A DNA stretch of 63,800 bases, the filler included, from an uncultured Methanosarcinales archaeon (GTDB lineage: Archaea; Nanobdellota; Nanobdellia; Woesearchaeales; CAZKBD01), in the NCBI GenBank assembly GCA_964550945.1. It is 3 parts of 3 records of this genome, joined end to end, with 100 filler letters (N's around TTAATTAATTAA, not from the genome) between each part and the next. Parts side by side here need not be neighbours in the genome. Positions count along the whole stretch, not along the records: positions 27,555 to 53,586 come from CAZKBD010000017.1; 2 more parts are not named here. One strand, written 5' to 3'. The position numbers were made by a program, and so were the translations under genes. The stretch's first letter is position 1. Every line of letters starts with the position of its first letter. A model generated the notes under the pieces. That model saw only the letters and a program-made list of their open reading frames with translations. It was not told where the DNA came from and did no database searches. Below are positions 31,771 to 51,498 of the stretch, one piece after another.

Positions 31771-31988
31771 TTTACTCCATGTAACCGAACTTAGTTACCT
31801 ATTTTACAAAATCCTTTAACCACCTATTAAGGTCTTCAACTGCTTTTTGGTTCATTATTATATCACTTTACTCTTATGTCACAAGAACTATTATTTAAAT
31901 CTTTTCTTTTTTACTATTATATAGTAGCAAAATACATTCATCATTTGATGACTTATTGACATTTTGTGTTGGCATTTTTATTTACTTT

Positions 31989-33548
31989 TTATGGAAACAC
32001 AGACTTAAAAAAATTCCTCACACCTCTCTTAATTTTCTTTCCTACTTCTCTGCTGTGATAAGATTCTGAAGATTCTGAGGAACTAACACGCTGGTATGGT
32101 TTTGGATATTCTGATTTAGAAAGGGGTTCTGTTGTAACTTTTTGCTCTATTGATTCAGCCCTCTCTCGAGTAAGAGCAAAATTGCCATCACTCCAGTCCT
32201 CACCAGTTCCTGATGTCCTTGCAACATTAACCCAATAGTCTGAATCCTGGCCATACATGCTTGGATCAATAAACCAATCATAAGATGTGGCATCTTCGCT
32301 TGTATGATAAGTGGTTATCCTTCTTGATCTGTTCCAGTCACCTGGAATACCTTTCATCATTTGGATTTTAATAGAAGAGTCGACACGCTCATTGATTTTC
32401 CACCTGATTGTTTGAGTTGTTCCAAGTTGCCATACTTCACCACCATTTGGGCTTAGGACTGCATATGGTCCAGAACTTTCAGGCACTTTTTGAATAGGCG
32501 GTTGTTTTATATATTCACTATCTTTTTTTTGCCATACTTCAAATGATTTCCTTATTATCTCAGACTCCAAACCAAATTCATCAACTGCTTTTACAGCAAC
32601 AGCGTAATTTCCTACCGGCATATTTGTGACCAGCTGCCTGCCATGATTTATTCTATTCCATTTTCCTTCAGGACTTTGCATATAAACTGTAACATCATGG
32701 CCGTCGGGGTCTCTTGCATCTGTTGTAAGAAAGACTTGCTCGCCAACATCTACTCTCTCTTTATTTAACGATGCTGTAAGTGCAGGCCTCTGGTTTTGTT
32801 TGACCTGCACTGTAGCAGACTGAATTTTTGATTCAAGACCTTTTGAGTCTATTGCTTTCAAATATAGTGTATGGTTTCCTATTGACAATCCAGAAACGCT
32901 ATCTATCGCCTTAGTAGATAATGTCCATGCTCCATCATCAATTTTATAATAATGCCTCATCAAATCATTTGGATCTGAGAAAATAGCAGTAAATTGTAGT
33001 GATTCACCCTCAATTATAACCGCACCATATTTTACAACATTTGACTCTACAAACTCAGGAGGCATGTTCGGCATTTCTGTCAGAACAGGCGTTTGTCCTT
33101 CTTCTTTTGCTGATTTTATTCGTTCAGCATCTTTCTGTAAATCTGACTCTATGTTATTTGGTTCAGCTTGCACTTCTGGTATAGGCTGTTGGTAAACCGC
33201 TTGTTGTTGAGTTACCTGTGCTTTCGTTTCATAATCTCCTTTTTGATAACTATGCACTAGATAGATACTTGGTAAACCCACTGCCATTATTATTGTAAAC
33301 ATTATCGCATCTATCAAATTTGGATGCCTTCTTCCAAATTCATAACCTTTGTCATAATACTTTGAGCTAAGATTTGTTTTATGTAACATACCAGCCAAAG
33401 TAGGGGCATTATAAGAATAAGTTTGCTGCTGTATTGAAAGCAAAGGATTAATGTTTGCTTTTTTTTCTGGTAATAGTTTTCTGTCTATCTCCCTTACAAG
33501 TTGATTTGCAGTTCTAATATTTCCATCAATAATTTGTTCCAATTCCAT
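31989..33548 (-). CDS. Membrane-anchored protein with Ig-like beta-sandwich domains
   Basis: One TM; two repeats ending GNHTLYLKAIDSKGLES / GNYAVAVKAVDEFGLES; VLSPNGGEVWQLG domain. Confidence 0.7.
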   Translation of the reverse strand: MELEQIIDGNIRTANQLVREIDRKLLPEKKANINPLLSIQQQTYSYNAPTLAGMLHKTNLSSKYYDKGYEFGRRHPNLIDAIMFTIIMAVGLPSIYLVHSYQKGDYETKAQVTQQQAVYQQPIPEVQAEPNNIESDLQKDAERIKSAKEEGQTPVLTEMPNMPPEFVESNVVKYGAVIIEGESLQFTAIFSDPNDLMRHYYKIDDGAWTLSTKAIDSVSGLSIGNHTLYLKAIDSKGLESKIQSATVQVKQNQRPALTASLNKERVDVGEQVFLTTDARDPDGHDVTVYMQSPEGKWNRINHGRQLVTNMPVGNYAVAVKAVDEFGLESEIIRKSFEVWQKKDSEYIKQPPIQKVPESSGPYAVLSPNGGEVWQLGTTQTIRWKINERVDSSIKIQMMKGIPGDWNRSRRITTYHTSEDATSYDWFIDPSMYGQDSDYWVNVARTSGTGEDWSDGNFALTRERAESIEQKVTTEPLSKSEYPKPYQRVSSSESSESYHSREVGKKIKRGVRNFFKSVFP

Positions 33549-33561
33549 TATAATTGATCAC

Positions 33562-34338
33562 CTAACCACCAGGGCAACTATGACCATGAAGCAGCCCGGG
33601 CCATTCTCCTTTCGGAACATAATGTTCCCCGTTATAATTCCTTATAAATCGATTATACTCCCCAATTAATGTGTTAAAGTCTTGCCTAAAATCCTCAAGC
33701 GATGACTGCATGGATGAGACTGCAGATAGCGAATCTGTACCTGCTAATTTATCTGTTAATCTTTCTAGTCTAGCATCAACTTTTTTTTCTATATTTGCAA
33801 CACTATTTTCAATATATTTGACGAACCTTCTTATTGACCCGTTACAGCAATCATGGTATTCATGATTATACAAATCACTTTCAAGGTCATCCTGCATTTT
33901 ACGCAAGCTATCTTTAATATCTTCCAAACGCCCTTCATAGTGCGATATCCTTTCTTCTATTTCGCTTTTTTTCTTTTCTAATCTTCTTTCCTCTTCCCTT
34001 CTTCTTTGGTCTTCATATGGGCCTGTATGATGGTACCACGCATTGTTAAGTACGGTTCCTGCAAAAGGATCTGTTATTAGGTGCCATTTTTGATCGCCGT
34101 ATGTACTGAGGGGCACGGTTAGAGTTTGGCTTGGAGTATAGCTTTTTAGTTCTCCCTGCAGTTTGGAAACTTCTTCAGTTAGTCTCTGAATTGTAGACTC
34201 TTTGTTAGTCACCATCCTCGTTATTCCAGCTATTCGTTCATTGAATTCGTGCTTTGTCTGCTCATCATTGATCTGGCTAACCAGTTCCTGAGCTCTTCGT
34301 ATATTTTCTCGTATTATATCATCTAATTCCATTTTCAA
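33562..34338 (-). CDS. Coiled-coil protein
   Basis: Heptad-rich; first ~22 aa resemble those of 31989-33548. Confidence 0.65.
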   Translation of the reverse strand: MKMELDDIIRENIRRAQELVSQINDEQTKHEFNERIAGITRMVTNKESTIQRLTEEVSKLQGELKSYTPSQTLTVPLSTYGDQKWHLITDPFAGTVLNNAWYHHTGPYEDQRRREEERRLEKKKSEIEERISHYEGRLEDIKDSLRKMQDDLESDLYNHEYHDCCNGSIRRFVKYIENSVANIEKKVDARLERLTDKLAGTDSLSAVSSMQSSLEDFRQDFNTLIGEYNRFIRNYNGEHYVPKGEWPGLLHGHSCPGG

Positions 34339-35342
34339 GAGTAGAGAACCTCTGTTTGTTTAACCAATTGAAGCTCACCTAGGTAAGATTGCAGCCTTTC
34401 TTTCATTTGCTGAAGCCTTTCTTTCTTGCCACTAGCTTGTTGTGTGCTCACTTCACGAGAAATTTGCTCTAGCTCTTTTGTTATCCTTTGATTTCTTGCG
34501 TATAGAGCAGCTTGGATTCCTTGTTTTGCTTCCTGAACTGCTACTAATCCCTGATCGATTAATGGTTGAGTTTGTGGATTAGAGTAGAGAGCAGGATCTG
34601 ATTTATATTCCTCACATTCTCTTTTGTAATCATCTAATAATTGCATAGCTGCAGATAATCTAGCAATATCTTGCTCTTTAAGGTACTCAGCTTTAAATAA
34701 GGGGCTGGTTTGTGATCTTTGGCTTTTTGCTGTTTCAGGCAACTGCATTAACATATCTCTAATTGCAACTGGCATATATGCCTTTAGAAATTTAACTGCT
34801 TTTTGTTCTAAATTTCCCTCTTCTCCAATAATTGGATCTCTCTCTGAATTGCTAATCCTAGAATATGCTATACTTATCATTAGAACTGATTTAAGATCAT
34901 TTTTATCTTTTGCTTCTGTTAATAAGCGCCTTACCTCTACATTTTCTAACATATGCAAGTATGCCAAAGCAGATATATTTATTTGAGGATCAACGCTATA
35001 TCTTGGCTGTGATGTTATATCCTCTTTTTTTCCAACAGTTTTCTTTTTTAATCTTCTATTAAAATATTGAAGAGATTTTTCGAATGATAAGGTCAATAAA
35101 TCATCAGGCCTTGCTTTTGGAGTATACCCTAAAAGGTAATCGCTAATAACCAGCTCTGTTAAGGTTTTGCCATTTTTTACCGCAGCACTTAAGAAATCAT
35201 CTGAAAGATTATCAATAAAATAATCTAAAATTAATAAATCACTTATACATCTATTAAATTCGATATTTCTAGTTTTATGGGTAGTGTGTGCTAATATTGT
35301 TTCAATAATAGATACCAAGGATTCTGCATTTTCAGGTGCCAT
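34335..35342 (-). CDS. Hypothetical helical protein
   Basis: 335 aa, overlaps both neighbours, C-terminal coiled coil. Confidence 0.65.
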   Translation of the reverse strand: MAPENAESLVSIIETILAHTTHKTRNIEFNRCISDLLILDYFIDNLSDDFLSAAVKNGKTLTELVISDYLLGYTPKARPDDLLTLSFEKSLQYFNRRLKKKTVGKKEDITSQPRYSVDPQINISALAYLHMLENVEVRRLLTEAKDKNDLKSVLMISIAYSRISNSERDPIIGEEGNLEQKAVKFLKAYMPVAIRDMLMQLPETAKSQRSQTSPLFKAEYLKEQDIARLSAAMQLLDDYKRECEEYKSDPALYSNPQTQPLIDQGLVAVQEAKQGIQAALYARNQRITKELEQISREVSTQQASGKKERLQQMKERLQSYLGELQLVKQTEVLYS

Positions 35343-36033
35343 GATAGTACCTGTATTTTAATTCTGGAACTGATTCAAGTATATGTAAGGCATTGTACCC
35401 ATCTTTTGCTATATCCATCTTATAAGTAGACAATAAGCTGCTGACTGCAGCAACCCTTTCTCTCACTGATTTAGGAACATCTTTCAGGTTGGCTTCCCCT
35501 AATGGTAATGTCAATAAATTATTGCAAAGCACCAAAAGATTGTATTCCTCATTTCTCACTAGCATTCGCTGGTATGCAGCCAAATCAAAATCAAGAATCT
35601 GCTGGATTGTTTGCTCTAGTATAGAATCCAATGGTTTTCTTTCTGCTTGTGGTTGCCTTCTGTAAAGGGATCTTGTAAAAGAGACTACTTCAACCCTTAA
35701 AGAAGTTGTAACATAAGCAGTCCAAGCATTAAGGCCAATGGTTTGATCTTCAAGGAAGGTATAAATCCCTGTATCTCCATGTTTTGCAACATAAGAATCT
35801 GCCATCAAAAGCTTTTTAACAGTTTCTGGATTTGGATTTTTAAGGTATTCTCTTACTTTTTCTGGATCTAAATTCCCAAGAAAATTGTCCATTAGTAATA
35901 TTTCTCTTAGACCCAATCCTTCATATCCAGAGTCTGTTTTTGAAATTGTAGGGGTTAAAATAACAGTACTCTTGTTGTTTCTAGCACTGCCTCTTCTTCT
36001 TAATCTTTCAAGTACAATATCCATGGATATCAC
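35332..36033 (-). CDS. Hypothetical protein
   Basis: 233 aa; shares VLExLxRRGxAR and GLREIxL with 46076-47233. Confidence 0.65.
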   Translation of the reverse strand: MISMDIVLERLRRRGSARNNKSTVILTPTISKTDSGYEGLGLREILLMDNFLGNLDPEKVREYLKNPNPETVKKLLMADSYVAKHGDTGIYTFLEDQTIGLNAWTAYVTTSLRVEVVSFTRSLYRRQPQAERKPLDSILEQTIQQILDFDLAAYQRMLVRNEEYNLLVLCNNLLTLPLGEANLKDVPKSVRERVAAVSSLLSTYKMDIAKDGYNALHILESVPELKYRYYHGT

Positions 36034-36539
36034 CGTCTAAATTTAGAATTTCTCAACATCTAACCGAATTAATAAAGCTTATTTGAGAAAAAGCAGGTAA
36101 ATTTCGGGGGTGGCGGAAATGTTGCAGATTTTTTGCAGATATAGTTTAGCTATACATATTAGTCTACTACAAGTTCAATCAGATTATAGGGTGTTTTCTG
36201 TCCACTTATCTCTTCCTCTTCTGTTTTAATTATTAATGCAGCGTAATCTGATAATCTATCAGTAAGTTCCATCTCTAGTTCCCGCCCATCATTTGTCCTC
36301 GCTATAAAATGGACTTTGCAAGAATGGGGGATTAATGCCATTTCAAAGCGTGTTTGAATCTGTTGTGATATACTTCTATCCTGAGCATTGTATGCTTGAT
36401 TATATTCATCTGCTTCAGGATCAAGCAATTTTTGTACTACATCACTAACAGACTTCCCTAAATATACTTCATCAACTCTTTTTGCTAATACTCCTCCACA
36501 TTCACCATCTGGCCTCAGTTTAAATTCTAAAGTTACATA

Positions 36540-37642
36540 TAGATAACTGCACGGTTTAGGTGACAAAGTTTATATACTAGTTCCTTAAATATAGTAGATT
36601 GTGAGCCAAAAAGAGATAAATGACGGAAGATCATATTCGCATGAGATTTTAGAGAATTATAGATTTCGTGCCATAGAACTGTATAAAGAAGGTAAAAAGA
36701 TAAATGAGATTGCTTATTTCTTTGGGGTGCACAGAGGCAGTGTATCTCGGTGGATAACTACCTACAAGAGAGAAGGTAAAGAAAAACTAAAAAGCAAAAA
36801 AGCTCCTGGTCCATCGTGTAAATTAGTCAATGCCGAAATGGAGGAACTACTACAGGTACTTGAAGATGAAGCTACACAGCACGGATTTGAAACCCCACTG
36901 TGGACATGCAAAAGATTACAGCAGGTTATCTATAAGAAGACAGGCAAAAAACTCCATCCCACTAATGTTATGCGCTGGCTAAAACGCTGGAAGATAACAA
37001 ACCAGAAGCCAGAAAGGCAGGCAAAAGAGCGTGACGAAAAAGCAGTTAAAAAATGGCTGAAGGAAGAATGGCCAAAAATTAAGGAGCATACCCGTCGGTG
37101 GCAGGCTATTCTATACTTCCAAGATGAGTCTGGAGTCTCCCTCACCGCCGTCTTAGGAAAAAGATGGGCTCCACAAGGAAAAACTCCGATTGTCAAAGTT
37201 ACTGGAAAAAGAGGAGGTTTATGTGTAACCTCTGCAATCAGTCCCGCTGGAAAGATGGTTTTTAGAATTGAAAAAAAGAAAGTGAATGCAGATAAGCATA
37301 TTGAGTTCTTAAAACAAATATTAAAGCATCATGGAAAAAGAAAAATAATTGTGATAGAAGATCGTGCGCCCCCTCACAGAGCAAAAAAGGTAGATAGGTT
37401 TGTTGAAGAAAATGATAGGAGACTAGCAGTATACCGCCTACCTTCCTATGCGCCCGAACTAAACCCAGATGAACATGTATGGGAATACTTAAAGGCATAC
37501 CAGCTGAAATCCCATCAAGCGCAAACTACCGATGAACTAAAGAAGCTTGTAAAGAAAAAGATGCAGAGTATACAGCGGAAGAAGGGATTGGTTAACTCTT
37601 TCTTTATTGGGACTTATGTAACCTAAGCTATGCAGTTATCTA
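36540..37642 (+). mobile_element. IS630-family insertion sequence (1103 bp)
   Basis: Terminal IRs TAGATAACTGCAcgGtTTAGGT / TAGATAACTGCAtaGcTTAGGT; TA target duplication at 36538-36539 and 37643-37644. Confidence 0.93.
36601..37626 (+). CDS. IS630 transposase
   Basis: N-terminal HTH, FQDESG, EDRAPPH, LPSYAPELNPDEHVW (DDE). Confidence 0.95.
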   Translation: MSQKEINDGRSYSHEILENYRFRAIELYKEGKKINEIAYFFGVHRGSVSRWITTYKREGKEKLKSKKAPGPSCKLVNAEMEELLQVLEDEATQHGFETPLWTCKRLQQVIYKKTGKKLHPTNVMRWLKRWKITNQKPERQAKERDEKAVKKWLKEEWPKIKEHTRRWQAILYFQDESGVSLTAVLGKRWAPQGKTPIVKVTGKRGGLCVTSAISPAGKMVFRIEKKKVNADKHIEFLKQILKHHGKRKIIVIEDRAPPHRAKKVDRFVEENDRRLAVYRLPSYAPELNPDEHVWEYLKAYQLKSHQAQTTDELKKLVKKKMQSIQRKKGLVNSFFIGTYVT

Positions 37643-37660
37643 TACATGGGGTTTGCCATA

Positions 37661-37781
37661 TTTACATCCCTCCATAAATTTGTTGATTTTTTGAAAACAA
37701 ATTCCTTTAATAAGGCTTATGGTAAAAAAAGGCTTGAATTTCCGTTGGTGTTGGAAAAAATTAGTGAAAAGTCGGAAAAGT
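37661..37781 (-). promoter_or_regulatory. Upstream region of the Ubl paralogue, duplicate of 45180-45300
   Basis: 72 bp identical (37661-37732 = 45180-45251), then the GAATTTCCG...TCGGAAAA motif. Confidence 0.85.
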
Positions 37782-37816
37782 AACGAATAGCAATCAGAAG
37801 CTATATAAACTCTATA

Positions 37817-38593
37817 ATGATTCTCAACATTAAAAAAATGGATGAATTGTTGAGGATATTAAAAACAAGACGAACAGCAGATTCAGAAAGATATTCAAAA
37901 AGGGCTTCCTCGGTTGAAGCTTGGAGAGATTATTGGAACAATAAAAATCATAGAACAGCCATTTCTGGTATAGACGGAAAACTTTACAGTGCATATAACT
38001 GGATTGACGGGAGGGAAATAAGAATGTTCTGTATGCCAGGGGTAGACGAGAGAGTCATACCTTATGTAGAAGCAGGAATTCAAGATATGGTTCAACAGAT
38101 AGGATTGGATTTCTCAATGAATTATTATGGTTCTCATGTTTCTGCAGTAGAGCAGGTTAAACAATCTGCAAGAAAAGATGGAACTATTGATGGACATAAA
38201 CTTTTAAAGATACTTATTGCAGAAACTTGGAGGAATCCTAGCTATGGAGGAAGGCCTCATGCTGATGTGATGATAATTGACAGATTTCTAGCGAGTGGAG
38301 ACGAAAATTGGGGGCAATCAGAATTTTCCGAAGGTTATATGATTTTGGCTTTACCTAATACTAGGCAAAGGTCTTTTGAGTTTATAAGAAACATTTCAAA
38401 ACATGAAACTGGACATTTATTTGGTCTTGGAGAGCACCATGACACAACTAATGTGGATGGTTACAGGCATGTTCCAAAGTGTAATATGTTATGGGAAGTA
38501 CCTATAGATTATACGTGTGATAAATGTGCTGATGCAATAACTTATTTTTGGAGAGGAATTGAAACTAGGACAGGAGAAAAGTTCTTCAGATGA
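37817..38593 (+). CDS. Zinc metalloprotease (metzincin/archaemetzincin-like)
   Basis: HETGHLFGLGEH followed by CNM and CDKC. Confidence 0.75.
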   Translation: MILNIKKMDELLRILKTRRTADSERYSKRASSVEAWRDYWNNKNHRTAISGIDGKLYSAYNWIDGREIRMFCMPGVDERVIPYVEAGIQDMVQQIGLDFSMNYYGSHVSAVEQVKQSARKDGTIDGHKLLKILIAETWRNPSYGGRPHADVMIIDRFLASGDENWGQSEFSEGYMILALPNTRQRSFEFIRNISKHETGHLFGLGEHHDTTNVDGYRHVPKCNMLWEVPIDYTCDKCADAITYFWRGIETRTGEKFFR

Positions 38594-38705: not shown

Positions 38706-40172
38706 TCAAGAAAACAACTGTTTCACTTCATTAATCTGTTGTCCATACATCCTATTTGCATACCTGTTATTGCCTATTATATCCCATAGGGGGTTCAAGA
38801 GTTCGCGTCTTGCCATAAGTTCGCCTTTATGGTGAACGTAGATAGATATTACCGCTTCTAATCGATCTGACCATTTATTTAATTTATTAGCCGAGGAATC
38901 TTCAACAACATTTCCATCTCTAATTGACGCCAAATTAGCTCTATAATCACCTGCTAGAATTTTTCCTATTGTGCCCACTATATTTTCATCGTTATTTTCT
39001 GAAGAGAATAAAGGAGTATAATATTCCTGCATTCTATGTCCATAGTTAGATGTCCTTCTTTTAAGAGATTCAATTATCGGGTCACTATAACCATTGTTAG
39101 GGCTTATGTGGACAGCTGGTTGTGTTCTAGCTCCTCTATCAGTAGGCAAGGTGTAATTTGACGGCGGTCTCTCAACACCAGTATACTTATCACTAAGTCT
39201 TTCTCCATTTGGAAGAATTATTCTCCCTATCAAATCTTCATCAATTCTGTCTGTATCTAAACTGCATGTATCTGCTCCTTCAACAAATTCAATTCTAGGA
39301 GCAATCCCGTGTAGATCTGTATGATTCTCCTCTATTACTCTTTTAATAGTATCACCTTCGATTACTAATCTTGGATGTTTAGCCTGTACCCTTAGGGCAG
39401 GAGCATCTCTGTTCGCATTCACAATAAAAGTAGGAGTATAAGTAAAACCTTCATATCTTAGACTAATATCTCCCCACGGGATATATACTGTTTTTTTTGC
39501 CCCCCAACTATTTAAGATGTCCCTTAATCTTGATTTATCTTCATGGGAAAATTCATTTGAAATATTTCCATGAGAATGAGCCCACCCTATTATTTCTTTC
39601 CTTAGCCTGTCTTTTATATCATGATGGGATCTTATTGCTCCAAAACCAGTTATTTCGCAGTGGTCGTGTCTTACTTCTTGTTCGTGACCTATGTAAACAT
39701 CAGTTATTATTGGTTCTCCGTTAGTTTTATGACCAATTAAAAAGAAACTTACTTCATAAGGAACACTATCATTTAACACATGCCTTGTAAGTTCACCAAA
39801 TCTCTGTGCTATATATTGTGATTTATCCCAAGCTTCTTGCGTGATTTTTATTGTGCTTGTCTCTTGTCTGACAACATCTTCGATATTTCTATTGATTTCA
39901 GCCACAATCAACCTTCTAATTTTTCGTTCTGCCATGGCTGTCCTTTGCCTATATAAATCACTTCTAAGATAACTATGGAAATCAAAAGAACCATCGCTTC
40001 TGAAGAAATCAGCCATTCTTTGACCTCTCAGTCGGTATCTCCCTAAATCTATAATTCTTGTGGATTTGGTTGTAGGAGTACCATTGTGTAGTTCCTCTCC
40101 TAAATTAACATCGCCTGGAAAAACGTGATTATCTACTTCTTCAACAACAGCGTCTAAAGTTGCAGTCGGCAT
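38706..40172 (-). CDS. JAB/MPN+ metalloisopeptidase 2 with N- and C-terminal extensions
   Basis: EVSFFLIG...GWAHSHGNISNEFSHED, an intact E...HxH-x7-S-x2-D JAMM motif. Confidence 0.85.
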   Translation of the reverse strand: MPTATLDAVVEEVDNHVFPGDVNLGEELHNGTPTTKSTRIIDLGRYRLRGQRMADFFRSDGSFDFHSYLRSDLYRQRTAMAERKIRRLIVAEINRNIEDVVRQETSTIKITQEAWDKSQYIAQRFGELTRHVLNDSVPYEVSFFLIGHKTNGEPIITDVYIGHEQEVRHDHCEITGFGAIRSHHDIKDRLRKEIIGWAHSHGNISNEFSHEDKSRLRDILNSWGAKKTVYIPWGDISLRYEGFTYTPTFIVNANRDAPALRVQAKHPRLVIEGDTIKRVIEENHTDLHGIAPRIEFVEGADTCSLDTDRIDEDLIGRIILPNGERLSDKYTGVERPPSNYTLPTDRGARTQPAVHISPNNGYSDPIIESLKRRTSNYGHRMQEYYTPLFSSENNDENIVGTIGKILAGDYRANLASIRDGNVVEDSSANKLNKWSDRLEAVISIYVHHKGELMARRELLNPLWDIIGNNRYANRMYGQQINEVKQLFS

Positions 40173-40266
40173 TTTTACTGTTCATACCCTCTTATACAGG
40201 TTATATATCATATTAAGTATTAATATTTTATTACTGTTTTTTTGGTTTTACCGAAAATTTTGCGAA

Positions 40267-42108
40267 TCAACACGTATGTGGATTATTTGTCTTCTTTTTA
40301 TTTCTCATATAAATTCTAGGATTTCCAAAAGATGAATATTGAAAAGCAGTAGTGATAGGATTATTATTCAGATGAGGATTAAAAAAATTGATAGATTCGG
40401 CTACCATTTGACTTGCAATAATTATATTAGGTATTATCGTACTTGCTTGTACATCTCCACAGGGGTTGCTTTCTGGAAAGTCTCTCAGGTTTAATTGACA
40501 ATTTACACATTTTGTTTTCCCAGGCATATATGCTGCTAACTGTCCACCCCTTGGATCGGTGCCTCCGTCTATATAAGGTACTCTGTTTCTTACTGCGAAC
40601 TCATTTAACCAGTTCCTTGCATATTTGTTATCAAAGCAGCCAAAAATTATGTCATAATTTCCTCTTAAAAGACGATCATAAGTGACTAACTCAACTCCTT
40701 TTTCTTGTTCTCTAGGACTCAAGCTAAATTTATTACTCGCATAATCTTCATACTTATCTGAAACGCCACTTGCCTGCATCATCTCTATTATCCATCCTTT
40801 ATCTCTTTCCAAATCAACTACTCCAATTTTTCCAAAAATAAAATCTGAATGAACATTTGGATTAATCTCTATTACTCTTTCAGCAACAACTTCAGCTTTC
40901 CTATCAAGAACCCTTCCTCTTAATAGCACCTGCCTTGCAAGATTATGGTTTTCGATATAGTCCATATCTAAAATGTCTATCCTACCAACACCCATAGTTG
41001 CAAGTTCTAAAGCAACAAAATTGCCTAGTGCTCCCCCACCTGCAACTAGGACTTTAAAGTCTTGATAGACTCCTATCCTATCCTGTTTTAGATCAGATTC
41101 AAAGCCCCTTCTGCTTCGAGAGCATGAGTTATAGACAAATCGCCTGTTTGAGGGCATAGGATCGTCTGTACCATCCTTTATATATCTAAATTTAAATCTC
41201 CTGAACTCTTCTGATACAAGCCCTGCTATTACTCCGCTGGGAAATGATCCTTGTTGCAAACCTTCAAACTCTGCATGAACCATAGCATCTAAATCTACAT
41301 TTTCTGATACAACTCTTACTTTGCCGTTCTGAGGCCAATAGCATGTGTAGGCTCCTTTTGTTCTATCGCTTGATGCTGAAATTACAGGTATGTTGTAGCC
41401 AGATGCGCCTAAAGCATATTCTAGTACCGCTCTTTTGGATATTGTATCATTTGTAGCTTCAATTATTATTTCAGGTCTGAATCTATAAGCAAATGCCTCA
41501 ACAAATCTGGCATGTCTAGAGATTAAATTTCCTGAGCTGTTTAGCTCTCTTAATGCTGCTTCAATATGCCTGACTTTTTTTTGGCCTTTATGCATTATAT
41601 CATGGCTGCATAAAAAGTCATGCCTATCACTATCGCTTATTCTTTTATTGTCCATAAATGCAAGAACACCACCATATCTGTTGCCTGCAACACCCATCCC
41701 AGTTAAACAGCATAATATCATCTGGGCTAAAACATCTGAGCCAACTACTAGGACTCTAGAATTATACAAAATCTCTTGTCTTTTTTTTCCTAATTCCCAT
41801 AGCACAACATCATAAATTTCTTTAAGAGCTTCTTTAGGGTCTTTGCTTCTATCTGGGTTTTTGCATACACGATTGAATGTTTCTCTTGGCAATCCTTCTT
41901 GATTCATGTATCTTGTTAACTCTTTTTCAATAGCTTTTATTTTCCGATCAATACTAGTGCCGCTCTCCACATCATGAATATCTCTGGCGTATCCAGAAAA
42001 TAGTTCTGGATCATAACCCCATGCTCTTGCATTTCTATCATCCCTATCATTTATAACAAGCTGGGTCATGTTTGGCCTCATTAGGAGTATCTCTTTTGGA
42101 TTTATCAA
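40267..42108 (-). CDS. E1-like activating enzyme with tandem ThiF/UBA domains
   Basis: Domain 1 degenerate (RVLVVGSDVLA); domain 2 GGGALG, DMDYIENHNLARQ, RKAE, CFDN, CVNC, then NPC; real start may be ATG 42069. Confidence 0.92.
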   Translation of the reverse strand: MINPKEILLMRPNMTQLVINDRDDRNARAWGYDPELFSGYARDIHDVESGTSIDRKIKAIEKELTRYMNQEGLPRETFNRVCKNPDRSKDPKEALKEIYDVVLWELGKKRQEILYNSRVLVVGSDVLAQMILCCLTGMGVAGNRYGGVLAFMDNKRISDSDRHDFLCSHDIMHKGQKKVRHIEAALRELNSSGNLISRHARFVEAFAYRFRPEIIIEATNDTISKRAVLEYALGASGYNIPVISASSDRTKGAYTCYWPQNGKVRVVSENVDLDAMVHAEFEGLQQGSFPSGVIAGLVSEEFRRFKFRYIKDGTDDPMPSNRRFVYNSCSRSRRGFESDLKQDRIGVYQDFKVLVAGGGALGNFVALELATMGVGRIDILDMDYIENHNLARQVLLRGRVLDRKAEVVAERVIEINPNVHSDFIFGKIGVVDLERDKGWIIEMMQASGVSDKYEDYASNKFSLSPREQEKGVELVTYDRLLRGNYDIIFGCFDNKYARNWLNEFAVRNRVPYIDGGTDPRGGQLAAYMPGKTKCVNCQLNLRDFPESNPCGDVQASTIIPNIIIASQMVAESINFFNPHLNNNPITTAFQYSSFGNPRIYMRNKKKTNNPHTC

Positions 42109-43351
42109 TCATTTCAAGAATATTGCTATAAACTTCACTCAATTTTTTTAACCAAAAACTTTTGGAACATGGTATGTGGCTTAATATACCTGATGATCTT
42201 TCGATTTCTGCATTTATAGCACTTAATAATTGACAATAACGATCCTTTTGGGAAGCTAGCTCACCTAAAAGATCTTCCTGTAGATTCCTCATACATTCAA
42301 TATATTTTCTGTGCCTTTCTGATTCTTCGTCATTACCTGTTATTGTCTTTCTGTCATATCTTCTTACTGTTTCATCCAGCTGTCTAGCTCTATTGTACAG
42401 CTCACTTGCCAGACAAAAGTGGTCTTCAATACTGTCTGCGTCTCTTAGAACATCTTCTACGCCTCTAGAACTTAACCTCCTGCTGATTTGCTTGCAGGAA
42501 ATAAGACCATTTCGAGCATTTTCATAGTCTCCTTCGATATCTGGTGCGGATGTTTCATATCTGCGCCTAAGATTTACTACACGCTCAACCAGTTCTTGGT
42601 CAATTTTTTCTCTGTCCAAGATACTTCTATCTCCATCTTCAACAATCTCATAGCCTGCATTTTTTACCATTCCATTCTTGCCATCCAATTGGTAGGCAAT
42701 AACACAAAAAGGATTATCTGCATTCGCATTAAATGTTATGCCATAAGTGTATCTTATTTCTCTAGCGGACAAGGTACTCAATATTATAGGATAGCCAGAA
42801 ATAACTTCAAAATCTAGAAATCCAAAAGATTCATGATGAAGTCTGAACTTATCATCACCTAAACTGATTTCCAAATATCTGCCTATTTCATCAATAACAA
42901 ACCTAGCAGAAGCATTTCTTGGTGGAACAGTTAAACCTACTATTTTTTTCATACCCAAATTACTTAAAACTTCAATAATTGTATTATCATCTATATCAGA
43001 ATAGAATGTAGACATTTTCCCATGCGAATGGCCCCAGCCGACAATTCTTCTCTTTGATTCTCTTTTTATACTATGATAGGATTTTATTACTCCAAATCCA
43101 CTAATATCACATCGTGTTGGGGTGACATCCTGTTCATGACCTATACAAACATCTTCTATTACTCTGTTCTCTGTGCTTTGTTCAACGTCGCCTAACAGAA
43201 AAAACCCCACTTCCATACCTCCTTCAAATAATTCACATATCCTCTTAGAGACATAATTAGCTTTATCAAACGCTTGCTTTGTTATTCTGACTGGTGCCAG
43301 CTCTCTCCTAACCTGTTCCTCTAAACTTAATATAACTTTTTGTTTAGCCAT
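42047..43351 (-). CDS. JAB/MPN+ metalloisopeptidase 1 with C-terminal helical region
   Basis: EVGFFLLG...GWGHSHGKMSTFYSDID, intact JAMM motif. Confidence 0.87.
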   Translation of the reverse strand: MAKQKVILSLEEQVRRELAPVRITKQAFDKANYVSKRICELFEGGMEVGFFLLGDVEQSTENRVIEDVCIGHEQDVTPTRCDISGFGVIKSYHSIKRESKRRIVGWGHSHGKMSTFYSDIDDNTIIEVLSNLGMKKIVGLTVPPRNASARFVIDEIGRYLEISLGDDKFRLHHESFGFLDFEVISGYPIILSTLSAREIRYTYGITFNANADNPFCVIAYQLDGKNGMVKNAGYEIVEDGDRSILDREKIDQELVERVVNLRRRYETSAPDIEGDYENARNGLISCKQISRRLSSRGVEDVLRDADSIEDHFCLASELYNRARQLDETVRRYDRKTITGNDEESERHRKYIECMRNLQEDLLGELASQKDRYCQLLSAINAEIERSSGILSHIPCSKSFWLKKLSEVYSNILEMIDKSKRDTPNEAKHDPACYK

Positions 43352-44666
43352 TTTGGAAAATCCTCTCTTTGGCTATTCCGTGGGCAGAACAATAAGACTC
43401 AGCAGATGTTCTGCTAGTGGCTATTGGTGTAAATTCCTCAAGCCAATGTACTGGCCTGTCATTTCCTATACGGTCTCTGCTGTGGATTGGATAGCAATAA
43501 TATCCTGTTTCCAGATTTTTTTCAGCTTGTCGCATGACTTGGGCAATTTTTTTTGCCAGTGTTTTTGGTTTTTTTAGGCTGTACATATCATTAAATTTAA
43601 CTTGAAGATCGTCCCACCTGTTTCTTGTACCCCCAGTGTAACAGATACTGCCGTTGCTATGAACAAAAGGATGCCTATAATGCATGTTAAGAACTACTGC
43701 TGGAGCAACAATTTGCAGGCTGTTATTACACACCTCTAGATCTATCCCTAAATCTACGTTTCCGAAAGCAAAATATTTTCCTTCTTTTTCTATCAGAAAA
43801 GGATTTACACTAATTGATATTCTGTATCTATTTGAGCCTGATTTCTGGAACCCAATTTTACCCCTATGAGAACTAGTAATCCCAGAATATCTACTTTTAC
43901 TGCTTATCCCTTGTTCCAACGCTGATTTAAAACTCAATAATCTTTTTATGTAATCAATATGCACTTTTCCATGTTCTAATGCTTTAGCTTCAATTCTATT
44001 TAGTAATCTTTGTTCATATTCCCCCATCAAATCAGAAAGATCACGCCAATAACTGATGGCCATTTGACAACCTGCGAATTTAACATGACCACTAGCAGTT
44101 TCATTCCCACAATCCCTAAGGCGAAATACCCTGCCTCCAAGAACAATGATCCTATTATTCTGTAATAGAATACCCTCTAGGCTGGTTAACGAGGAGTTTA
44201 AATCCTCTATTCCCGGGATGTGCTCTAGAGTAGGAATATCATCAAATTGAGAAACATCTGGAACTTCTGGTTCGTTGCTATTTCTATTCTCATGATTATA
44301 TGCATTGAAAACATCAACCATAATAAAGCGTTCAACTGAGTTATCTTGAATAGAATCATAGACATTACCAAGGGACTGTACCTGTGATTTAAGTTCGTCA
44401 ATTTTACTTAAAATCTTTGATTGTATGACCCAACTCATGTAATCTGTAATTTGCGCTTTATACTCTTCAAATAATTCTTGTTCTAATACATGGATTTCTT
44501 CAGCTTCTTCTAATGCGTATTTCTTTCCTAGATATTGAAGAAAATTTTCGCCGCTGAAATGACCATTGGTCATATGTAATGTATGCACTCTTCCGTCTAG
44601 TATAGCGAATGAATCTTTACTTAATAAAAACTCTTTTAAAAAATTTGAATCAAGGGACAGATTCAT
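43344..44666 (-). CDS. E2/UBC-like conjugating enzyme with long N-terminal extension
   Basis: APAVVLNMHYRHPFVHSNGSICY resembles the UBC signature PPxVxF...HPNVxxxGxIC; Cys codon at 43641-43643; sits between the Ubl and JAB/E1 genes. Confidence 0.72.
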   Translation of the reverse strand: MNLSLDSNFLKEFLLSKDSFAILDGRVHTLHMTNGHFSGENFLQYLGKKYALEEAEEIHVLEQELFEEYKAQITDYMSWVIQSKILSKIDELKSQVQSLGNVYDSIQDNSVERFIMVDVFNAYNHENRNSNEPEVPDVSQFDDIPTLEHIPGIEDLNSSLTSLEGILLQNNRIIVLGGRVFRLRDCGNETASGHVKFAGCQMAISYWRDLSDLMGEYEQRLLNRIEAKALEHGKVHIDYIKRLLSFKSALEQGISSKSRYSGITSSHRGKIGFQKSGSNRYRISISVNPFLIEKEGKYFAFGNVDLGIDLEVCNNSLQIVAPAVVLNMHYRHPFVHSNGSICYTGGTRNRWDDLQVKFNDMYSLKKPKTLAKKIAQVMRQAEKNLETGYYCYPIHSRDRIGNDRPVHWLEEFTPIATSRTSAESYCSAHGIAKERIFQNG

Positions 44667-44707
44667 TTTTAAAAAGATATTTTACTGCTAGTTTAATTAG
44701 CATATTG

Positions 44708-45178
44708 TTAGCCGTCAGTTTTTGGAGATGGGTTGCTATGATTCATCAAGCTATCTAACCCACCCCCATAAGGTGGAGAAACACATAGTTCAATCAGATT
44801 ATAAGGTACTCTTTGTCCATCTTCTTCTTGTTCTCTTGTTTTAAGTATTCTATCAGAGTAATCAGAAAGAACTTTGTTAAGGTCTAAGGGTATCTCATTT
44901 GGAGGCACATCATTTGTATATGCAGAAACCTGAACTTTTTTCCTTGGGTCCATCGTTGTTTCGTGAAACCACCTCTGGATTTGATTTGCCATACCCTTTT
45001 CATAAGCATTATATTCTGGGTTATATTCGTCTGAATCAGGATCAAGTAATTTTTGCACTGCATCCCTAACAGGTCTCCCTAAATAAGCTTCATCCACTTT
45101 TTTTGCTAACCTATCATCTACATTTTCATTTTCTGCTCCTAAAACAGGCTCTAGTGTTATAAACATTGGCTTAGCCAT
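44708..45178 (-). CDS. Ubiquitin-like protein precursor (GGG at residues 138-140 plus 16-aa tail)
   Basis: LDLNKVLSDY...NLIELCVSPPYGGG parallels ubiquitin LEDGRTLSDY...TLHLVLRLRGG; first gene of the E2-JAB-E1-JAB run. Confidence 0.75.
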   Translation of the reverse strand: MAKPMFITLEPVLGAENENVDDRLAKKVDEAYLGRPVRDAVQKLLDPDSDEYNPEYNAYEKGMANQIQRWFHETTMDPRKKVQVSAYTNDVPPNEIPLDLNKVLSDYSDRILKTREQEEDGQRVPYNLIELCVSPPYGGGLDSLMNHSNPSPKTDG

Positions 45179-45179
45179 T

Positions 45180-45300
45180 TTTACATCCCTCCATAAATTT
45201 GTTGATTTTTTGAAAACAAATTCCTTTAATAAGGCTTATGGTAAAAAAAGGTCTGAATTTCCGTCGATGTTAGAAAAAATTAGTGAAGAATCGGAAAAGC
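45180..45300 (-). promoter_or_regulatory. Promoter, RBS and operator-like region of the Ubl cluster
   Basis: Minus-strand GGAGG before the ATG and a TTATTAAA TATA-like box; GAATTTCCG...TCGGAAAA motif shared with 37722-37781 and 48201-48260. Confidence 0.75.
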
Positions 45301-45308
45301 TACGAAAA

Positions 45309-46064
45309 CTACCTCCACTGATTAAACCTTTCTAATACATCCATATCTGTAAGCACCTTGTATTCCTTGTGTTCTATACCAAATGTGTGGTATGCTGGGT
45401 CTACCATGATATCGCGACTTAATGTATGAACCATTGCACATGCATGATGTACTTTCTTTCTATGGCAATCTCTTGTTACGCTTACGTAACTTGCTCTTAG
45501 GTTTACACTTCTTGCCATGGTTATATAAAGAAAAGCCATTTCTCCGCAAACACCTTGTTGATTCTGTAAGACTTCTGTTGAGTTGCTATAGCCGTAAAGC
45601 CTTCTCGAATCTCCATATTGGATATTAGCTTCAATCCAGTCATAGATAGCTCTTGCCTTTTCTTCATCAGTTCTTGCAGTTCTTGTATGCCTTTTTATGA
45701 TTTGCACAAGCTGAGGGCTTATCGCAAATGGATTTTTGATACTGCCATCATTCACAAAAACCTGATAGTCATCGCTTATTTGGCTTATATCAAGAGAAGG
45801 ATCAACAACTTGCTTTTTATGTTGATTCTTAATCTGGGTAATAATTAATGCTGTACTATAGCGATCCGGCTTTGGAGTTTCTAGAGTGTCACCAGTTCGG
45901 TATTTTCTCTCTGTTTTTAACCTCTCTAGAAGATTTTGTTCATGAGAAGCGGATGATCTAATAGTTCTTTGCCTTAGTGATGCAATTGTTCTATCCTTAA
46001 AGTGGTCCCCTCTTTGGTGTCTTGCCTTATTTTTTAATTCTTGGACAATTCTATCCAAAGCCAT
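45309..46064 (-). CDS. Transglutaminase-like protein
   Basis: AIYDWI, GVCGEMAFLY...R, HACAMV, VDPA (Cys-His-Asp triad). Confidence 0.88.
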   Translation of the reverse strand: MALDRIVQELKNKARHQRGDHFKDRTIASLRQRTIRSSASHEQNLLERLKTERKYRTGDTLETPKPDRYSTALIITQIKNQHKKQVVDPSLDISQISDDYQVFVNDGSIKNPFAISPQLVQIIKRHTRTARTDEEKARAIYDWIEANIQYGDSRRLYGYSNSTEVLQNQQGVCGEMAFLYITMARSVNLRASYVSVTRDCHRKKVHHACAMVHTLSRDIMVDPAYHTFGIEHKEYKVLTDMDVLERFNQWR

Positions 46065-46075
46065 TATACAATCCC

Positions 46076-47233
46076 CTACTTATGTGAAGGGAGTTCAGCA
46101 GCTCTTAATGGCTCGTAAGCTAGCTCTGATCTATAAACTCCAGAATGTACCTCTTGGACTAGTCTTCTTAGATTGGCATTTGTTGATTGGATAATCTTTG
46201 GCGTAGGATGATTATTGACTACTTCTGTGATATCTCTTACACTCTGGATATAGCTATCATTCAATTGCCTGTTAAAGTCAGAAAGCACCAAAACACCAGC
46301 CCCAACTCTTTTAACACCCTCTGATAAGGTTGAAACCGCTCTCCATACCCCCTCATTGTTGTCTAATGTATCCTGATATAATTTAGTAATAAATGCCATT
46401 TCCATAACCCTATAAAGAACAGTTGCAAAAAGATCTTCCTGCATTAATAGGTTATCGATATCTTGGACATGATGTTCATCTCCGATTATGGCTACCCTTC
46501 TTTCGTAACCCATCTGTCTTACTGTTCTTTTGCTTTGGATTACTTTTCTGAGCATCTCAAAATATTGAAGATCATCTCTATCCATTTCGCTTAATTTTTT
46601 GCAAACTTCTTCATAATTTTCAATTTCTGGTGGAAGTACTTTGACTTCCAAAGCTTGCCTTGTTGCCCGTTCTCTCTCATTTTGCTCTATCAATCTATCC
46701 AAAGCATTTGTTGTAACTTTTAGGTCTGTCCCATAGCTTGCAGTCATATGTACTAAAATGTAATTTAGCTCCCCTACATTTTGCTGCTGTTGGATAAATA
46801 ACTCATGGATTGACCTATATGCTGGTTTTTTTCCTATTAACCCTCTTATAGCATCTATTAATGCAACCTCAGCCCTATAAACCCCAGAATCCCTCATCCT
46901 AAGAATCTTATCTAATTCTCTTTGACCAGCATTTACGTCATCTACTATCAGCTGAATTTCTCTTAACCCAGCATCGTCGCCATATGCTCTTGTTGGTTTT
47001 CCAGGCAAGGTTATTGCTGCTTCATAAAGCCTTCTGCTAATAGGAGTTTGAGGCTCTCTAACGACTACAGGATGTTGTGTTTTTTTATTTGGGGTAGGAG
47101 CTTTTCTAGCACCACCTCTTCTCTTCAGATTTTCTAAAACTGGATCATTATCTTTGTCCATTATTACCACCGCCATTTCTTCTTTAATATTGTTCTGTAT
47201 CTCAATGCCATGTTTAGTTTCATCTTTACTCAA
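46076..47233 (-). CDS. Coiled-coil hypothetical protein
   Basis: Long amphipathic helices; overlaps 47226-47513. Confidence 0.65.
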   Translation of the reverse strand: MSKDETKHGIEIQNNIKEEMAVVIMDKDNDPVLENLKRRGGARKAPTPNKKTQHPVVVREPQTPISRRLYEAAITLPGKPTRAYGDDAGLREIQLIVDDVNAGQRELDKILRMRDSGVYRAEVALIDAIRGLIGKKPAYRSIHELFIQQQQNVGELNYILVHMTASYGTDLKVTTNALDRLIEQNERERATRQALEVKVLPPEIENYEEVCKKLSEMDRDDLQYFEMLRKVIQSKRTVRQMGYERRVAIIGDEHHVQDIDNLLMQEDLFATVLYRVMEMAFITKLYQDTLDNNEGVWRAVSTLSEGVKRVGAGVLVLSDFNRQLNDSYIQSVRDITEVVNNHPTPKIIQSTNANLRRLVQEVHSGVYRSELAYEPLRAAELPSHK

Positions 47234-48200: not shown

Positions 48201-48260
48201 TATAAAAAAGCCACGAATTTCCGTCTTTGCTGAAAAAATCAGGTATCAGTTCGGAAAATC
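48201..48260 (-). promoter_or_regulatory. Third copy of the island operator-like motif
   Basis: AAAAAAG-N4-GAATTTCCGT...AAAAAAT...TCGGAAAA with the same spacing as 45241-45300. Confidence 0.65.
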
Positions 48261-48749
48261 GTTAAAAACGTGTGGAATCAGGCCAATATGGTCTTTTTTT
48301 GTAAGGAATGATTCTCGCTTTAGTTCTTCAACAACAAAATGTTCGCTTATTTTTTCAATTCCGAAAATTGTTAGGCTTTCCAGAAATTCTTGAGATTCCT
48401 TTAAATTTTTAAAAACCCCCTCAACAAAAAAATCTGAACCGTTGTTTGTTCTATAAACTGTATTAACATTTTTATGGTCGATTAGGAAATTTCTCAAAGT
48501 GTCTTTTTTTTCTGCCTTTATTATATAGTTCACTTTAATGTTATAACCCATCTTAGGAAAATCCATGATAGTAATATGCTTTTTTATTAATTTCTTATTA
48601 AGCGAGTTAATCTTATCAAATACTGTGCTAGTTGGAATATCTATCTTTCTTGATATTTCAGCAAGGCTTATCCTAGAGTTCTTCCTCAGCTCATGCAAAA
48701 TCAGAAGTTCGTTATAGCTTAGGCTTGCTTTTGTTTGGTCGGGTTTCAT
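48246..48749 (-). CDS. Lrp/AsnC-family transcriptional regulator
   Basis: ILHELRKNSRISLAEISRKIDIPTSTV HTH plus RAM domain. Confidence 0.9.
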   Translation of the reverse strand: MKPDQTKASLSYNELLILHELRKNSRISLAEISRKIDIPTSTVFDKINSLNKKLIKKHITIMDFPKMGYNIKVNYIIKAEKKDTLRNFLIDHKNVNTVYRTNNGSDFFVEGVFKNLKESQEFLESLTIFGIEKISEHFVVEELKRESFLTKKDHIGLIPHVFNDFPN

Positions 48750-51033: not shown

Positions 51034-51498
51034 TCACATAACTATATCAATAAGGGAAGAGTCTGACATGAATGCCTCTTTCTTTACATCTTCAATAAGG
51101 TAGTAAACCTGCGTTTGCTCTAATTTAAACTTTCCACCAAACATATCGATAAAGTCTTCAACATCCTTTACATTTTTAAAAATGCCCTCAATAAGAAAAT
51201 CAAAGCCATTGCTTATTTTAAATACTGAATTTATATTCTGATGGCTTAATAGAAATTTCTTTGCTTCTTCTCTTAAATTTCTGTCTACTCTAACCATAAT
51301 ATTCACCCTTGCATTGAAGCCAAGCTTCGAGAAATCTATCAGTGTTGTATGCTTTGTTATCAAGTTCCCTTGATAGCATTTTATTTTGTCAAAAATAGTT
51401 GAGATAGGCACATTTGTATGTTTGCTTATTTGTGTTAATGTTTCGCGAGCATTGTTTCTAAGCTCACTTAGTATTAGCAAGTCCTTTTTTGAAAGCAT
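51034..51498 (-). CDS. Lrp/AsnC-family transcriptional regulator (paralogue of 48246-48749)
   Basis: ILSELRNNARETLTQISKHTNVPISTIFDKI...KHTTLIDFSKLGF. Confidence 0.9.
   Translation of the reverse strand: MLSKKDLLILSELRNNARETLTQISKHTNVPISTIFDKIKCYQGNLITKHTTLIDFSKLGFNARVNIMVRVDRNLREEAKKFLLSHQNINSVFKISNGFDFLIEGIFKNVKDVEDFIDMFGGKFKLEQTQVYYLIEDVKKEAFMSDSSLIDIVM

Follow-up and report, generated by a model that had tools for sequence, protein, structure and literature searches.

A candidate E2-dependent ubiquitin-like modifier system in archaea of the phylum Nanobdellota

Here we describe a cluster of five genes in a 63,800-nucleotide stretch of DNA (hereafter, the window) from an uncultured archaeon placed in the Woesearchaeales, phylum Nanobdellota (GenBank assembly GCA_964550945.1). 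The window consists of three contigs joined by spacers, and the whole cluster is contained in a single one of them, contig C17 (CAZKBD010000017.1; window 27555-53586). The genes encode a ubiquitin-like protein (Ubl), an E2-like protein, a JAB/JAMM metallopeptidase (JAB1), an E1 and a second such peptidase (JAB2). An E2-dependent modifier system, as a preliminary description of the sequence had proposed, is the best reading of this cluster, because neither fold test, of the Ubl as a beta-grasp protein or of the E2-like protein as a ubiquitin-conjugating (UBC) fold, came out against it; both folds were supported.

Results

Five intact genes on one contig

The five consecutive minus-strand genes of the preliminary description were present, all of them open (Table 1). 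The overlaps that it noted among the E2, JAB and E1 genes were confirmed as 8 nt between E2 and JAB1 and 23 nt between JAB1 and E1, the latter growing to 62 nt if the E1 starts at the TTG. The ATG at position 42069 is the more probable E1 start, because the starts of the homologues fit it better. Gaps of 41 nt and 94 nt separate Ubl from E2 and E1 from JAB2, respectively. All five reading frames and the catalytic residues are intact in the window copy. An assembly artefact was ruled out: the cluster lies in a single contig, and public contigs leave no bin of the stretch uncovered.

In a family scan of the window proteins, the E1 passed the Pfam model ThiF (E 3.9e-47) with two matched stretches, in agreement with the double-ThiF E1 described before. 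JAB2 passed Prok-JAB (E 1.1e-5), and JAB1 gave a weak match below the cut-off (E 0.0097). The Ubl and the E2-like protein matched no Pfam or NCBIfam family, and a PADLOC scan gave no meaningful match for either. The label "DPANN-like" was supported by kinship: two other genomes in this order have related proteins that carry the name Candidatus Woesearchaeota (2 of the 10 looked-up proteins had names).

The small protein is a predicted beta-grasp protein

The GGG reported in the small protein occupies residues 138-140 and is followed by a 16-residue tail. The AlphaFold2 model (pLDDT 91) predicts an enlarged beta-grasp (residues 1-137) ahead of the Gly-Gly at 139-140. Compared with known structures, all 50 VIA rows among the matches listed were ubiquitin-like or beta-grasp-bearing by title. 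The best of these listed matches reached Z 7.5 (rmsd 2.3, 82 residues aligned), and BilA (8tyz_B) reached Z 6.6 (rmsd 3.1, 83 aligned). Foldseek returned the same fold class, at E 0.0035 for the best match. The structure scores of the model are middling, yet the match list is uniform, and the fold test by modelling and structure searches came out for a beta-grasp. Structure-atlas matches all stayed below 0.9 and serve as leads only, and the Ubl profile found no ubiquitin in the PDB at E<=10.

Among 38 Ubl homologues, 32 have Gly at column 140 and 23 have Gly-Gly, with tails of 0-18 residues. A variant was observed in locus L039 (loci are cited with their own coordinates): directly after the E1 gene, L039:5411-6637 encodes a fusion of a Ubl domain without Gly-Gly, a hydrophobic stretch and another domain, and the same locus holds two more Ubl copies.

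The E2-like protein is a predicted split UBC domain with repeat modules

The motif HPFVHSNGSIC was located at residues 332-342 of the 440-residue protein, including His332 and Cys342. Its AlphaFold2 model (pLDDT 93.8) predicts two repeat modules, each a beta-hairpin with a long helix (5-107 and 157-258), and a split UBC domain, whose first helix (~110-124) is separated from the remainder (~260-430) by one repeat module while the other stands in front. The internal repeat was also recovered by hhalign (98%, E 1e-13). In a second-look VIA alignment, which covered Foldseek's own top chains, 50 of 50 among the matches listed were UBC folds (Z 5.8-6.5, rmsd 3.6-5.3, 117-131 residues aligned). The E2 family profile found 15 PDB sequences at E<=10, 14 of which were E2s aligned on the HP..IC motif (E 0.14-0.72). 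None of these fold and sequence matches is significant alone, but together they are concordant and suggest a UBC fold for the modelled protein; structure and profile comparisons both point to E2s, each with a modest score, as the preliminary description would have it. In the structure atlas, the first match of the E2 domain (0.91) was a partly viral cluster and another (0.80) a cluster with 13% UQ_con, both of them leads only. A PF00179 search was uninformative, as its controls were silent. The N-terminal module, searched within the whole-E2 model, resembled no known fold beyond helical bundles.

Cys342 is kept in 53/53 homologues longer than 270 aa, including all 19 from loci fetched later, and in 138 of 146 ungapped rows of library representatives. 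For library representatives shorter than 270 aa, some of which are probably fragments, 7 of 14 ungapped rows keep it. A conserved His lies upstream of the cysteine (H332-P333...C342), and no conserved His follows it. The E2s are 17-36% identical to one another.

Short stand-alone E2 homologues were observed in five loci (L043:6452-7081, L045:8170-8769, L047:3620-4396, L055:1699-2244 and L066:12308-12964), all from genomes with an E1. All five are without the N-terminal module and have Ala or Asp in place of the catalytic Cys; they resemble inactive E2 variants.

The E1 and its modelled complex with the E2-like protein

The E1 comprises an inactive adenylation domain (IAD, ~104-335), in which the ATP-site residues are lost, and, at the C-terminal end, an active adenylation domain (AAD), in which they are kept, with Cys550 in a short crossover loop. 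D381, D383, N389, R392, Q393, K404, D493, R498 and C550 are invariant in 31/31 E1s, and C534, C537, H611 and C613 likely form a Zn site. In all 31, only 13-28 residues lie between residue 535 and the catalytic Cys, so the E1 has no CYS domain, and no UFD follows. Among the matches listed, the inactive domain was closest to ThiF, Uba4 and MoeB (E 3e-16), with eukaryotic inactive domains at E ~1e-6. This relationship suggests that the IAD-AAD layout may have arisen by an independent duplication of a ThiF/MoeB ancestor.

We modelled E1 residues 62-613 with the whole E2, together with three controls. The pair scored 0.71, against 0.01 for the best control. The mark applied, which is only roughly valid with custom alignments, was attained by 116 of 157 solved complexes and by 2 of 215 mismatched pairs. 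The runs agreed in at least 93% of contacts, with partner pLDDT of at least 79. The confident interface joins residues 154, 198-209 and 223-227 of the inactive E1 domain with E2 residues 7-60, outside the UBC domain. The model supports the idea that the N-terminal module tethers the E2 to the inactive E1 domain, and we know of no solved E1-E2 complex with such an interface.

Two JAB/JAMM peptidases

The JAMM identity of both peptidases, as previously assigned, rests on E47, H108, H110 and D121, which are invariant in 34/34 aligned family members, both window copies included. JAB2 is 35-38% identical to JAB1 over ~150 aa. Against the PDB, the best match of the family profile was 6fjv (E 2.6e-11), which we take to be Caldiarchaeum Rpn11, followed by JAMM1, BRCC36 and Rpn11. 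In other loci, JABs with unrecognised extensions of 750-1030 aa were observed (L032:1618-4719, L064:5240-8188, L066:4209-6752 and L042:5240-7489), which are candidates for target recognition.

The gene set recurs in the phylum

We sampled 401 genomes of the phylum. The single E2 protein found matches in 24 of them and the Ubl profile in 32, while a 150-row E2 profile reached 59 (~15%; two of the 59 weak), distributed over 54 of 281 genera in one class. An exhaustive HMMER search collected 768 E2 family representatives at 50% identity; word-based searches found only 1-3 proteins. A pattern scan of genome contigs returned one relative and that of metagenomes one generic ThiF stretch; in viral contigs the scan found no match, and tblastn against phage gave E 0.5 only.

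An initial set of 40 loci, made up of the window and 39 fetched loci, was picked by E2 or Ubl hits, and the profiles were built from it. Ubl, E2 and E1 occur together in 30 of these loci, 28 of which also have a JAB. The commonest order is Ubl-E2-E1-JAB (14/40), and two JABs are present in 5 of the 30 complete loci. In 18 further E2 loci, the E1 adjoins in 16, a JAB in 14 and a profile-detected Ubl in 9. The clustering exceeds chance, because the three genes lie together in 30/40 loci and the E1 adjoins the E2 in 16/18. In two genomes (G036 and G194) the set is split over distant places, with linked genes lacking an E1 that lies elsewhere in the genome. The preliminary description had called the architecture unlike any recognised. 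Several points need correction: the cluster is one representative of a family that occurs in about 15% of the sampled genomes, two JABs are a minority variant, the first four genes follow the BilABCD order, and the unit is larger than five genes.

Two side observations concern other loci. L062:3995-8875 contains four paralogous genes in an operon whose locus has no E2; some of these genes share an N-terminal stretch with E2 extensions elsewhere. ARC/Mpa-like or ClpX-like ATPase genes stand by operons of E1 subclades other than the window's (L062:10289-11770, L069:3135-4607, L102:9157, L066:13175-15202, L067:2473-3627, L090 and L091).

The cluster is part of a larger island

The cluster is part of a larger island with accessory genes that recur beside its relatives (Table 1).

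Table 1. Features of the cluster and the surrounding island, in window coordinates
Feature	Position	Strand	Remarks
Ubl precursor, 156 aa	44708-45178	-	Open frame
E2-like protein, 440 aa	43344-44666	-	Open frame
JAB1, JAB/JAMM metallopeptidase with helical C-terminal extension, 434 aa	42047-43351	-	
E1, 613 aa from TTG	40267-42108	-	~600 aa from ATG at 42069
JAB2, JAB/JAMM metallopeptidase, 488 aa	38706-40172	-	Paralogue of JAB1
Ubl upstream region, probable promoter	45179-45306	-	Duplicated before second Ubl (37660-37787)
Transglutaminase-like peptidase	45309-46064	-	Pfam Transglut_core E 9.5e-16; triad C173-H207-D222
385-aa helical/coiled-coil protein	46076-47233	-	In 8 other loci, homologues adjoin Ubl or E2 genes
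Zinc metallopeptidase-like protein (HExxHxxG)	37817-38593	+	Assigned by motif; divergent from second Ubl promoter
Second Ubl paralogue, 47% identical	36159-37659	-	IS630 after six codons; ends before Gly-Gly
IS630-family element	36540-37642	+	Transposase 36601-37626, Pfam DDE_3 E 5e-36
233-aa protein	35332-36033	-	Homologue directly follows last JAB in L033
335-aa helical protein, recurrent downstream of last JAB	34335-35342	-	Homologues in L032, L033, L036, L037, L066

The duplication upstream of the Ubl genes spans 147 bp at 90% identity (45160-45306 versus 37641-37787) and has no counterpart in the 59 other loci. A sigma-70 scan stayed at chance level, and the sigma-70 model does not suit archaea. 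The second Ubl is probably a pseudogene. The IS630 element that interrupts it has imperfect terminal inverted repeats (20/24 matching) and sits at a TA that has been duplicated. One contig of run X1, possibly the source sample, reads across the inserted element, and none of the joints bypasses it.

The triad of the transglutaminase-like peptidase is invariant in 7/7 proteins. Its subfamily occurs in 31 genomes. The E2 family is present in 19 of them as well, or in 13 of 25 once the six seed genomes are set aside, in a count that leaves out one unpublished genome and includes kin that are not independent. The 385-aa protein had no family match and no PDB match. The zinc peptidase gave no significant family or PDB match and none to Peptidase_M78, and a homologue is divergent from a Ubl gene in L036 (L036:10118-11005). 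The arrangement of the zinc peptidase and the Ubl promoter is reminiscent of capP beside bil operons.

Downstream, a PP2C-type phosphatase gene (with a weak TPR match) and a gene for a PKD/Ig-domain surface protein continue the minus-strand run (30367-33548). Upstream of the island lie Lrp/AsnC-type regulator genes (48246-48749 and 51034-51498), with similar genes near L031, L032, L040, L049 and L066. Repeats of 55-75 bp at the contig ends (27395-27454, 27555-27628 and 53532-53586) are common to many other contig ends and are probably the termini of mobile elements that broke the assembly.

Elsewhere, the genome encodes 20S subunits and has strong AAA matches whose sizes are those of PAN and CDC48, which they presumably are. 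A separate operon on contig C8 (L073:439-3093, genome G000) encodes a ThiS/MoaD-like protein with a terminal Gly-Gly, together with a MoeB-like E1 and a PLP-enzyme-like protein, and is a probable sulfur relay; this contig has one more weak JAB match. A RING pattern was absent from 59 loci and gave one low-complexity Cys-rich match in 16,543 frames of the 92%-complete genome; a PF12678 search found nothing, with its controls silent too.

Discussion

Taken jointly, the first four of the steps below describe a ubiquitin-like conjugation cascade without an E3, which we regard as probable. First, a JAB peptidase would cut the 16-residue tail after Gly140, as the conserved Gly, the variable tail and the precedents of Bil and Caldiarchaeum suggest. 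Second, the single-chain E1 would adenylate the Ubl in its active domain and take it over as a thioester on Cys550, a chemistry presumed from the conserved residues. Third, the E2, which in the model is anchored to the inactive E1 domain through its N-terminal module, may have the Cys342 of its UBC domain brought to Cys550 for transfer by the helical arm. Fourth, the E2 would pass the Ubl to target lysines without a RING E3, with recognition possibly through the second E2 module or the accessory helical proteins. In a fifth step, the second JAB and the transglutaminase-like peptidase may remove or edit the tag. The predicted folds, the conserved catalytic residues, the gene linkage (with an E1 elsewhere in the genome where the linked genes of G036 and G194 lack one), the E1:E2 model and the joint absence of N-terminal module and Cys in the five short E2 homologues speak for the cascade. 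The presence of a separate ThiS/MoeB operon in the genome also counts in its favour.

Several observations weigh against it. All single fold and sequence matches of the Ubl and the E2 are weak, with Z below 8 and a profile E of 0.14 at best: the Ubl had no VIA match at Z>=8 and no Foldseek match at E<=0.001, and the top Foldseek match of the E2 was Rad6b at E 0.25, again with none at E<=0.001. In an unbiased structure search with the E2, helical bundles ranked first and E2s appeared at ranks 30, 41 and 48 (Z 6.0-6.3); the uniform UBC result came from the second look at chains that Foldseek had itself put on top. The E2 has HPF where aligned canonical E2s have HPN, so it is without the Asn that aids isopeptide formation. 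In the E1:E2 model the UBC domain lies outside the confident interface and no Cys-Cys contact was named, the E1 interface residues are only moderately conserved, and an E1 and an E2 are a textbook pair that can pass modelling by likeness. Finally, L058 has a long E2 in which the first module seems absent and the Cys is kept, and L062 has Ubl, JAB and E1 genes with no E2 in the locus.

As to the role of the cascade, we tentatively and by a narrow margin put first a response to conflict or stress, in which viral or infection-related proteins would be tagged as they are by Bil. Such a role is favoured by the patchy spread (59/401), the low identity among the E2s, the shuffled gene order, the variable JAB extensions, the broken state of the second Ubl and the precedent of Bil (PMC10557695). 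The role in defence or host interaction suggested in the preliminary description was supported by no test. The operons have 174 neighbouring proteins at a distance of up to three genes; a PADLOC scan of 150 of these found no defence-specific neighbour, with the limit that PADLOC may cover DPANN defences poorly; seven matched at E<=1e-15, all via generic domains (kinase, helicase, ATPase, permease and similar). The dispersal of the gene set over the chromosome in two genomes and the several family-coherent E1 clades, from a quick tree with long branches, also speak against defence.

These same three findings fit a domesticated regulatory or proteostasis pathway, which is possible, if a slightly less favoured choice: the Ubl would direct proteins of the cell itself to an AAA unfoldase and the proteasome, or would act in signalling with kinases and phosphatases. 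Genes for ARC/Mpa-like, ClpX-like or CDC48-like ATPases occur within or close to the cluster in 9/60 loci, Ser/Thr kinase genes lie near four loci, and the PP2C gene stands downstream in the window. The 20S subunits and AAA matches of the genome and the closeness of the JAB profile to Rpn11-type enzymes point the same way. Against this, the ATPase-linked operons fall mostly in E1 subclades of the quick tree other than the window's, no ATPase gene adjoins the window cluster, and about 85% of the sampled genomes have no match, which, like the fast protein divergence, is unlike housekeeping genes.

It is improbable that the activated Ubl goes to a non-protein acceptor, be it sulfur (as thiocarboxylate), a lipid or a metabolite, or that the Ubl is itself a peptide precursor. 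The short MoeB-like crossover loop, the likeness of the inactive domain to ThiF, Uba4 and MoeB among the matches listed, and a RimK-like ATP-grasp gene in L033 are consistent with such a use. However, the E2 cysteine is conserved, which a sulfur relay does not need, the genome has its separate ThiS/MoeB operon, and no sulfur or biosynthetic genes recur among the neighbours. Even less probable is a host-directed system of an ectosymbiont, whose substrates would be host-cell proteins or components of the attachment apparatus. The kin are Woesearchaeota, which are presumed symbionts, and the Gly-Gly-less Ubl of L039 is fused to a hydrophobic stretch; on the other side, the five core proteins, inspected by eye, show neither a signal peptide nor a membrane segment, and no secretion genes recur among the neighbours. 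That the likeness to UBC is only superficial, or that the copy in the window is a decaying relic, as the weak individual scores and the broken neighbouring Ubl paralogue could suggest, is very hard to credit, with three kinds of comparison pointing to E2s, a Cys that follows the operon type, and all frames and catalytic residues intact.

A bolder version of the cascade, which we hold to be rather unlikely, is that the Nanobdellota own a separately assembled ubiquitination pathway directed at the cell's own proteins, with an E1 from an independent ThiF/MoeB duplication, with the duplicated arm of the E2 replacing the UFD of the E1 and the E3, one copy tethering it to the inactive E1 domain and the other picking targets, and with short Cys-less E2s, extra peptidases and dedicated unfoldases adding a layer of regulation. 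If true, it would be a third archaeal protein-tagging route beside SAMP and the Caldiarchaeum/Asgard ubiquitin.

More broadly, a phylum of reduced archaea has, in roughly every seventh genome, a complete E1-E2-Ubl-JAB set that is invisible to Pfam, NCBIfam and PADLOC, a finding that widens the picture of archaeal tagging and bears on the origin of canonical ubiquitination. An IAD-AAD E1 without a mobile CYS domain raises the question of how the Ubl moves from E1 to E2, and the answer suggested by the model is an E2 tethered on a helical arm. The core parts are all small enough for reconstitution. We found no description of the family in the literature searched, which lay mostly outside subscription papers, and supplementary operon tables could list archaeal members.

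In ThiS/MoaD sulfur relay and SAMPylation, a ThiF-type adenylation domain, a beta-grasp protein and a JAMM enzyme are shared, whereas those systems have no E2, and this genome's own ThiS/MoeB operon lies on another contig. Canonical eukaryotic cascades (Uba1, NAE1-Uba3, and Rad6/UbcH5/UbcH10-type E2s) share the IAD and AAD and a UBC with His-Pro upstream of the Cys; here, FCCH, SCCH and UFD are absent, and the E2 is predicted to dock via its own added module. Bub operons and CBASS Cap2/Cap3 also have prokaryotic E1, E2 and JAB modules (PMC11601596). Bub uses Tyr/Ser oxyesters and fused genes, in contrast to the separate genes here with C550 in 31/31 and C342 in 53/53, and Cap2 of Type II CBASS is an E2-E1 fusion acting on the cyclase, unlike the separate E1 and E2 genes of the window. 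No match to DUF6527, a Bub gene, was found among the window neighbours, and no CD-NTase among 12 window proteins or the 150 flanking proteins; the E1-E2 models matched the ThiF stretch only.

Among archaea, tagging with the help of an E2 has been demonstrated for the Caldiarchaeum subterraneum operon and reported for Asgard archaea (PMC5654768); ISG15-like systems are reported in only one archaeal taxon (10.1101/2024.10.26.620412). The Caldiarchaeum/Asgard operon is likewise archaeal, with a pro-Ubl that has a tail after Gly-Gly, a linked JAMM peptidase, and an E1 and E2 with cysteines (PMC5654768), and the best PDB match of the JAB profile is 6fjv. The differences are that the small RING E3 described there was not found here in 59 loci and the genome frames, that the Ubl here is ~140 aa long with no sequence likeness to ubiquitin, that the E2 is undetectable by UQ_con, and that the E1 is a tandem IAD-AAD without a C-terminal UBL domain.

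The bacterial Bil operons (Type I/II, formerly 6C/CEHH) are antiphage ubiquitination operons (PMC10557695), whose activity involves conjugation to a virion protein. As in BilABCD, there is a Ubl precursor with Gly and tail, separate E2 and JAB, no E3, and a single-chain IAD-AAD E1 without UFD (PMC10557695). The first four window genes follow the bilABCD order Ubl-E2-JAB-E1, which is not the commonest order in this family; gene order as proof of Bil membership was rejected because it varies within the family, in contrast to the Bil order, which is reported to be constant. Furthermore, the crossover loop of the Bil E1 carries a ~80-aa helical CYS domain, BilB has a Cys with a downstream His (CEHH) in place of HP..IC, and the E2 here is three times larger and split. 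The window also has a second JAB and accessory genes, with no defence-island context found. At E<=0.05, Bil models matched 0/38 Ubls and 0/30 E2s, and 1/34 JABs matched BilC (E 0.003), the only Bil model seen by name in the scanned library (25 of 32 E1 matches listed). BilB and BilD were not among the matches listed in the structure or PDB sequence searches with the E2 and E1. Because the CYS domain and CEHH-type E2 of Bil are absent, and because no ubiquitin or E2 recognisable by sequence and no RING was found, the cluster is a member of neither system, yet it would work like Bil and Caldiarchaeum ubiquitination.

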